Source: Escherichia coli (GTDB lineage Bacteria; Pseudomonadota; Gammaproteobacteria; Enterobacterales; Enterobacteriaceae). From it: 64,000 bases of DNA. The number at the start of each line of letters is the position of its first letter. The stretch's first letter is position 1. The stretch lies in the NCBI RefSeq assembly GCF_016026235.1, contig NZ_CP065613.1. One strand, given 5' to 3'. Shown one piece after another: positions 45,081 through 47,968 of this stretch. A program made the translations under genes and the position numbers. The notes under the pieces were generated by a model. That model saw only the letters and a list, made by a program, of their open reading frames with translations. It was not told where the DNA came from and made no database searches.

Positions 45081-47968
<2,888 letters not shown>

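Follow-up and report, generated by a model that had tools for sequence, protein, structure and literature searches.

Gene content of the motility region

The window, by which we mean the whole 64-kb stretch of DNA that was analysed, is E. coli chromosome and matches positions 1.951-1.992 Mb of K-12 (yecE to yecA). One end of it is taken up by a lambdoid prophage remnant that is interrupted by three IS600-like copies (Table 1). Its best matches came from human isolates of E. coli, among them CFSAN029787. The truncated FlhB and CheA of the window are on deposit as E. coli proteins belonging to assembly GCA_900449985.1. None of the nine prophage ORFs of at least 170 aa that were scanned in positions 1-20840 carried a methyltransferase domain. 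A further segment that is absent from K-12, an insert of 2.4 kb between flhB and cheZ, is common to the window and strain FDAARGOS_943 and carries genes for two proteins, one of 502 aa with an HD domain (annotation: dGTP triphosphohydrolase) and a hypothetical one of 250 aa.

Out of 40 K-12 orthologues in the window four are broken, namely yecE, which is cut by the prophage, flhB, cheA and motA. The motility regulon carries four lesions: the amber mutation flhB W345*, a 4-bp deletion in cheA, the amber mutation cheA Q579*, and an insertion of an IS4-family element that splits motA. The motAB-cheAW operon begins with motA, so this element sits upstream of cheA. All four lesions were present in every member of the lineage that we sampled, and a search for intermediates with the lineage-specific CheB S12L protein as query found no members with only some of them. 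Two loci with intact genes (L026 and L027) belong to another lineage with 183-186 differences. Lineage contigs that we take to be short-read assemblies end at the motA element.

Among complete genomes labelled E. coli, that of FDAARGOS_943 comes closest, with 99.9-100% identity over 35 kb. Its cheA, flhB and motA genes are intact and it has lesions of its own, namely a frameshift in cheZ and IS1 insertions in fliR, araF and ftnB. The window's lineage and FDAARGOS_943 are losing motility by independent routes.

Table 1. Features of the window, with positions counted from its first nucleotide.
Feature	Position	Strand	Evidence or remarks
Lambdoid prophage remnant	1-20840		Q antiterminator, DnaB-like helicase, S24/CI-type repressor, Rha-domain proteins; truncates yecE at 20840
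IS600-like copies (three)	4754-6017, 15821-17084, 19408-20677		interrupt the prophage remnant
Prophage integrase	18253-19425		within the lambdoid remnant
flhB amber codon 345 (W345*)	34527..34529	-	TGG>TAG; + strand C>T, position 34528
Insert between flhB and cheZ	35655-38100		absent from K-12, present in FDAARGOS_943
Silent change in tar codon 410	43183	+	CAG>CAA; C>T at inner C of CCTGG, lineage-specific
cheA pseudogene	45081..47041	-	N-terminal part up to frameshift, middle ORF, C-terminal ORF
cheA C-terminal ORF, 73 aa	45081-45302	-	ORF list; in frame with middle ORF
New CCTAGG site	45308..45313		former Dcm site CCTGG (45308-45312); inner 5mC of - strand CCAGG at 45311
cheA amber codon 579 (Q579*)	45309..45311	-	three-way alignment, CAG (Gln) to TAG, codon effect Q>*
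cheA middle ORF, 292 aa	45309-46187	-	ORF list; last residues AGAKTEAT
4-bp deletion in cheA	46241..46242	-	alignment with FDAARGOS_943 and K-12, both without the deletion
IS4-family element in motA, 1,292 bp	48237..49528	+	domain scan, DDE_Tnp_1 transposase; 11-bp target duplication

The amber codon in cheA and its ancestral state

Identity between the cheA region and its intact counterpart in FDAARGOS_943 is 99.8%. On the - strand the codons around the amber read GCT ACC TAG GGA ATT GTG GTG ATC (+ strand letters 45300-45319, cacaattccc taggtagctt), and conceptual CheA across this position, ...KTEAT*GIVVILQSGGRRYALLV...ANTAA, is in the same frame on both sides. The initial annotation of this DNA, made from the letters alone, had stated that the cheA frame stops at AGAKTEAT with TAG where K-12 has Gln, and that this was a single-base nonsense change after which the frame continues in register. 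ORFs and alignment agree with both statements, and the 73-aa ORF is the remainder of CheA.

The mutated base is position 45311, where the window has A and both FDAARGOS_943 and K-12 have G. The change, G>A on the + strand and C>T on the - strand, is a C:G>T:A transition when read from the ancestral base. Ancestrally the + strand read CCTGG at this place; opposite the changed base, the - strand had the inner C of CCAGG. The mutation therefore hit the inner (second) C of an ancestral CCWGG motif on the coding strand, which is the base that Dcm methylates, and the annotated conversion of + strand CCTGG to CCTAG at the inner C of the bottom-strand CCAGG is borne out by the alignment. The ancestral state was also looked up in 5,426 complete E. 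coli genomes with 55-mers centred on the site, for which a megablast seed is possible only if the central base matches. The ancestral 55-mer was matched in at least 4,739 genomes and the window allele in 8. The closest relative, K-12 and the large majority of complete genomes accordingly have CAG inside CCTGG at this codon.

The amber is not the only lesion that breaks cheA. The 4-bp deletion, which was found in all lineage members sampled, lies upstream of codon 579, shifts the frame past codon ~267 and leads to a first stop at aa 273. Together with the insertion in motA, which lies in the same operon, it makes the label "pseudogene-causing" an overstatement for the amber codon, which is not necessarily the inactivating lesion. 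Given the shifted frame upstream and the split motA, the stop at codon 579 may have been neutral when it arose. Three other decayed lineages (loci L010, L013 and L014) lack the window's 4-bp deletion and have other small deletions 40-45 nt away from it.

A second amber codon, flhB W345*, was likewise created by C>T at a Dcm site. The base concerned, 34528, was the inner C of a + strand CCAGG, i.e. the Dcm cytosine on the strand opposite to that of the cheA event. This allele was absent from every other complete E. coli genome among the 5,426 searched. The sequence CCTAGG occurs twice in the 64 kb against 6.25 expected occurrences, at 34526 (34526-34531) and at 45308, and each copy is the product of one of the two new amber mutations. 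Ancestral alignment and motif count confirm the earlier statements that the two events took place on opposite strands and that each of them made a CCTAGG (AvrII) site. The picture of two Dcm ambers in one regulon holds in so far as both are C>T changes at Dcm sites; the flhB codon, however, changed from TGG to TAG and not from CAG to TAG. The silent lineage-specific change in tar is an example of the Dcm hotspot acting without any change in the protein.

The substitutions in cheA and flhB are real. They are present in at least six assemblies or sequencing runs that were deposited independently for this lineage, and GCA_900449985.1, GCA_000805835.1, GCA_001907565.1, GCA_021505815.1 and contigs from SRA runs are identical to the window or one base off over 6-21 kb and carry every lesion within their span. 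An artefact of sequencing or assembly, e.g. a nanopore miscall at a methylated CCWGG motif, had to be considered, since Dcm motifs can account for up to 95% of the discrepancies between Illumina and nanopore data with older basecallers (PMC8106442). The agreement of several independent deposits, including the SRA-run contigs, over such distances speaks against a read error, as does the break of lineage contigs at the motA element, which is expected of short-read assemblies. We regard the chance of an artefact at 45311 as negligible and have rejected it for the window.

Mutation spectrum on the branch leading to the window

At 32,536 nt FDAARGOS_943 and K-12 agree, so that the ancestral state can be inferred. 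Over these comparable sites the window's own branch has acquired 12 derived substitutions, including ten C>T or G>A changes. Of these transitions three fell on the 162 inner cytosines of Dcm sites and seven on the 16,276 other G:C positions. The three Dcm hits are flhB W345*, cheA Q579* and the silent change in tar. Dcm inner cytosines thus make up 1% of the G:C positions and received three tenths of the transitions (binomial p=1e-4). Expressed per site, the excess is ~43-fold (Fisher p=1e-4), a figure that is based on three events and has a very wide confidence interval, and which compares with an approximately 8-fold excess of C>T at the Dcm cytosine at the level of the population. The size of the ~43-fold value is therefore very uncertain, while the existence of a Dcm excess is not. 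The 12 lineage-specific substitutions span positions 34528-57833. Seven transitions out of ten read as G>A on the + strand, a bias that is not significant with n=10. In K-12 most genes of this region are encoded on the - strand, which is also the leading strand of the replichore concerned.

The initial annotation had called the occurrence of two amber codons by the same route striking. Given the hotspot it is not unusual. Deamination would create a stop codon at 36 of the 162 Dcm positions and at 22 of the 86 that lie in flagellar and chemotaxis genes (22-26%), and the chance of at least two nonsense changes among three Dcm hits is p=0.13-0.16. Stop codons of this kind are retained only where a gene is dispensable, and the decay of the motility regulon is plain to see.

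Amber alleles at the same and at other codons in E. coli genomes

The eight complete RefSeq genomes with the TAG allele comprise five STEC (2014C-3011, three SMN strains and OkiPb01679), two urinary isolates and one blood isolate. The urinary isolates Combat2C1 and CUVET18-565 have divergent operons in which tap is deleted, and the blood isolate CAVP773 is K-12-like. In the four genomes for which we checked the PGAP annotation (2014C-3011, Combat2C1, CUVET18-565 and CAVP773) cheA is listed as a pseudogene with "internal stop" as the sole note. More carriers were found among NCBI and SRA-derived contigs. The STEC clade of 2014C-3011 also has an amber codon outside of any Dcm site, cheZ Q147*, and 2014C-3011 furthermore has a frameshifted flhC, so that here, too, the regulon has several lesions of independent origin.

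Between carriers of the TAG allele there are up to 88 substitutions over motB-cheA-cheW (3.4 kb). At the same time there are pairs of near-twins over these 3.4 kb that have CAG in one member and TAG in the other, with two other differences between the window and FDAARGOS_943, one between CAVP773 and K-12 and none between the sampled loci L023 and L024. Within 60 nt on either side of the codon TAG occurs on five different haplotypes, four of which were also met with CAG among the sampled loci. The nearest variable sites lie 4 nt upstream and 50 nt downstream, and this haplotype pattern requires recurrent mutation, or else recombination breakpoints within a few bases. We take it to mean that cheA Q579* arose independently at least four to five times. 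The window and the 2014C-3011 clade share their haplotype from -643 nt to beyond cheW, and on these local data a transfer between the two lineages is conceivable.

For a wider comparison, all CAG and TGG codons in 15 flh, che and mot genes that are one C>T or G>A change away from TAG were collected, which gave 22 codons in Dcm context and 202 elsewhere. The mutant k-mers were searched against the 5,426 complete genomes and exact matches were counted; for the codons outside Dcm sites we used 51-mers with spacers for the first 101 sites and k-mers with NNN spacers for the second 101. An amber allele in at least one genome was found for 11 of the 22 Dcm codons, with 50 exact-match genomes in total, on top of which come the five STEC genomes with cheA Q579*, which have another haplotype. 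The first 101 sites outside Dcm context yielded six with amber alleles (15 genomes). For the second 101 there were at least nine (60 of the 89 matches listed), and the 89 genomes are mostly carriers of flhC Q8*. The contrast between 11/22 and at least 15/202 sites is highly significant (Fisher p about 2e-6) and holds at p<1e-4 even if 22 non-Dcm sites are assumed (18 were tried as well). When only sites with an amber in two or more genomes are considered, the numbers are 6/22 for Dcm codons and 5/202 for the others among the matches listed (p=1.5e-4). Numbers of genomes, as opposed to sites, are swollen by clones such as the O145:H28 strains with tap W138*. The flhC Q8* change, which is not at a Dcm site, was seen among the matches listed in several dozen complete genomes, many of human isolates and several labelled strain 167; its carriers are probably one successful non-motile clone. 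Nanopore basecallers err systematically at CCWGG (PMC8106442), and some Dcm ambers that occur in a single RefSeq genome could be artefacts of this kind that inflate the population contrast. C>T changes, and nonsense changes among them, are thus enriched at Dcm sites both on the window's branch (3/162 against 7/16,276) and in the flh, che and mot genes of the population.

Origin of the stop codon

The best explanation for cheA Q579*, to which we assign a probability of about 0.8, is spontaneous deamination of 5-methylcytosine at a Dcm site that escaped Vsr repair and persisted in a dispensable motility regulon. On the coding strand of cheA, which is the - strand of the window, Dcm would methylate the inner C of CCAGG, and spontaneous hydrolytic deamination would turn this 5-methylcytosine into thymine, leaving a T:G mismatch. 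If the mismatch was replicated ahead of very-short-patch (Vsr) repair, C:G>T:A would be fixed and CAG for Gln579 would become TAG. The stop codon would then have been kept in an IS-laden lineage, resembling Shigella and enteroinvasive E. coli (EIEC), that no longer needed chemotaxis and motility or was in the course of losing them. It is presumed here that the C at 45311 was methylated in this strain, that it was lost through deamination and that the change was fixed neutrally; to a comparison of sequences alone, deamination of 5-methylcytosine looks the same as any other C>T event at 45311.

A special defect in repair is not needed for this. The annotation of the nearest complete genome gives both dcm (1,419 nt) and vsr (471 nt) as intact; the corresponding locus of the window's own strain lies outside of the 64 kb. 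Vsr is low in growing cells, so that hotspots exist in vsr+ strains, according to Macintyre et al. 1999 as it is cited in PMC2715241, and the summary of Cherry 2018 in PMC9520237 puts C>T at the Dcm cytosine roughly 8-fold higher across thousands of genomes. Because scarcity of Vsr during growth makes such hotspots in the wild type, and because the sister genome has both genes intact, we do not invoke a repair defect, and the site is an ordinary, classical and already known hotspot. The initial annotation had spoken of a mutational signature of unrepaired 5mC deamination, or Vsr escape. Its core, deamination at a Dcm site, is supported; the emphasis on a special escape from Vsr is overstated, as hotspots are normal in vsr+ strains.

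Among the other explanations, it appears unlikely, if less so than the remaining ones, that the codon did arise by deamination of 5-methylcytosine but that truncation of CheA was advantageous and the recurrence also reflects positive selection for loss of chemotaxis. Q579* cuts off the C-terminal 76 residues, which are part of the P5 receptor-coupling domain, and it occurs on at least five local haplotypes, some of them in otherwise intact operons of clinical isolates (CAVP773 from blood, Combat2C1 and CUVET18-565 from urine). Nonsense changes outside Dcm sites, such as cheA Q285*, cheA Q483* and flhC Q8*, exist too, some in many genomes, which suggests that loss is commonly tolerated or favoured. 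In the window, however, cheA is already frameshifted upstream and lies behind the motA insertion, so that selection on codon 579 is not needed, and the silent change in tar shows that the process acts without selection. Moreover, selection alone would predict no preference for Dcm codons over the ~9-fold commoner CAG and TGG codons elsewhere, and this preference was observed. An ordinary C>T change, i.e. a replication error or deamination of an unmethylated C that fell on CCWGG by coincidence with no part for methylation, is highly unlikely. It is true that C>T and G>A dominate the branch, that seven such transitions lie outside Dcm sites and that seven of the ten are G>A on the + strand. Against coincidence stand the three of ten transitions on 1% of the G:C positions (p=1e-4), the repeated change of the identical cheA site in unrelated lineages and the several-fold higher frequency of ambers at Dcm-context codons than at non-Dcm codons in the population.

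We consider it a shade less probable still that TAG was imported by homologous recombination, e.g. from a relative of the STEC clade of 2014C-3011 and the SMN strains. Starting 643 nt 5' of the site, the window is identical to 2014C-3011 up to the 3' end of the compared region, FDAARGOS_943 differs from both in this interval only at the cheA site, and a tract of up to ~1.5 kb could have brought in TAG without other traces. Over the 3.4 kb, however, the window differs from 2014C-3011 at 33 sites and from FDAARGOS_943 at only the two sites mentioned above. The lineage has two more C>T changes at Dcm sites, and that in flhB is unique among 5,426 genomes, so that a hotspot process is needed in any case; elsewhere the haplotypes carrying TAG already differ 4 nt upstream of the codon and, on the downstream side, at 50 nt, which indicates recurrent mutation. 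Deamination at the Dcm site followed by persistence in a dispensable regulon hence remains our preferred reading of cheA Q579*.

A more speculative extension of this reading, which we hold to be very doubtful, is that in dispensable genes, cheA for instance, CAG and TGG codons overlapping Dcm sites act as weak mutational switches that work in both directions. Vsr has been reported to stimulate CTAGG>CCAGG changes (PMC2715241). Deamination from CCAGG to CTAGG would then take such a gene from ON to OFF, and Vsr-stimulated change of CTAGG to CCAGG would take it from OFF to ON. The data from the window and the population cover the forward direction of such a switch, with at least five haplotypes at codon 579 and 11 of 22 Dcm sites. 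If the idea were true, recurrent alleles like cheA Q579* would be transient, revertible states and not dead ends.

For annotation, the present case means that one lesion of a decaying motility regulon is explained by a well-understood process, and it gives a small but concrete example of mutation bias shaping natural loss-of-function alleles in bacteria. Identical stops that recur at CCWGG should not be read as evidence of shared ancestry or of selection, and should be checked against nanopore artefacts.

Comparison with known systems

The closest parallel is found in lacI, where Coulondre, Miller, Farabaugh and Gilbert reportedly described in 1978 amber hotspots at CCAGG sites. As in cheA Q579*, the second C of CCAGG changes to T and an in-frame CAG becomes TAG, in vsr+ cells. 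The lacI hotspots, in contrast, come from laboratory selections on one gene, whereas cheA Q579* is fixed in a natural lineage under relaxed selection and occurs in several wild lineages. The wider setting recalls Shigella and EIEC, which are said to have lost motility convergently through IS insertions, deletions and point mutations. The window's lineage is likewise IS-rich and non-motile, with independent lesions in flhB, cheA and motA next to intact housekeeping genes. It differs from these groups in that the deposited records label it Escherichia coli and in that two of its four lesions are point mutations at hotspots and not IS insertions.

The repair pathway of Vsr with MutS and MutL reverses the T:G mismatch in CTWGG/CCWGG, the same type of mismatch that is proposed here; nothing in the cheA case indicates a defect in it, the sister genome having dcm and vsr intact. 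Our counts in the flh, che and mot genes agree in direction and rough size with the Dcm excess of Cherry 2018, as far as it is set out in PMC9520237. The summary given there deals with general rates, while the present case concerns pseudogenes of the flagellar regulon and codon 579 of cheA. The kind of event is therefore already known: cheA Q579* is a natural counterpart of the lacI hotspots and an instance of methylation-induced hypermutation. What may be new, to a modest degree, is codon 579 of cheA as a repeatedly hit site and the disproportionate share of natural ambers in the flagellar regulon that Dcm-context codons provide.
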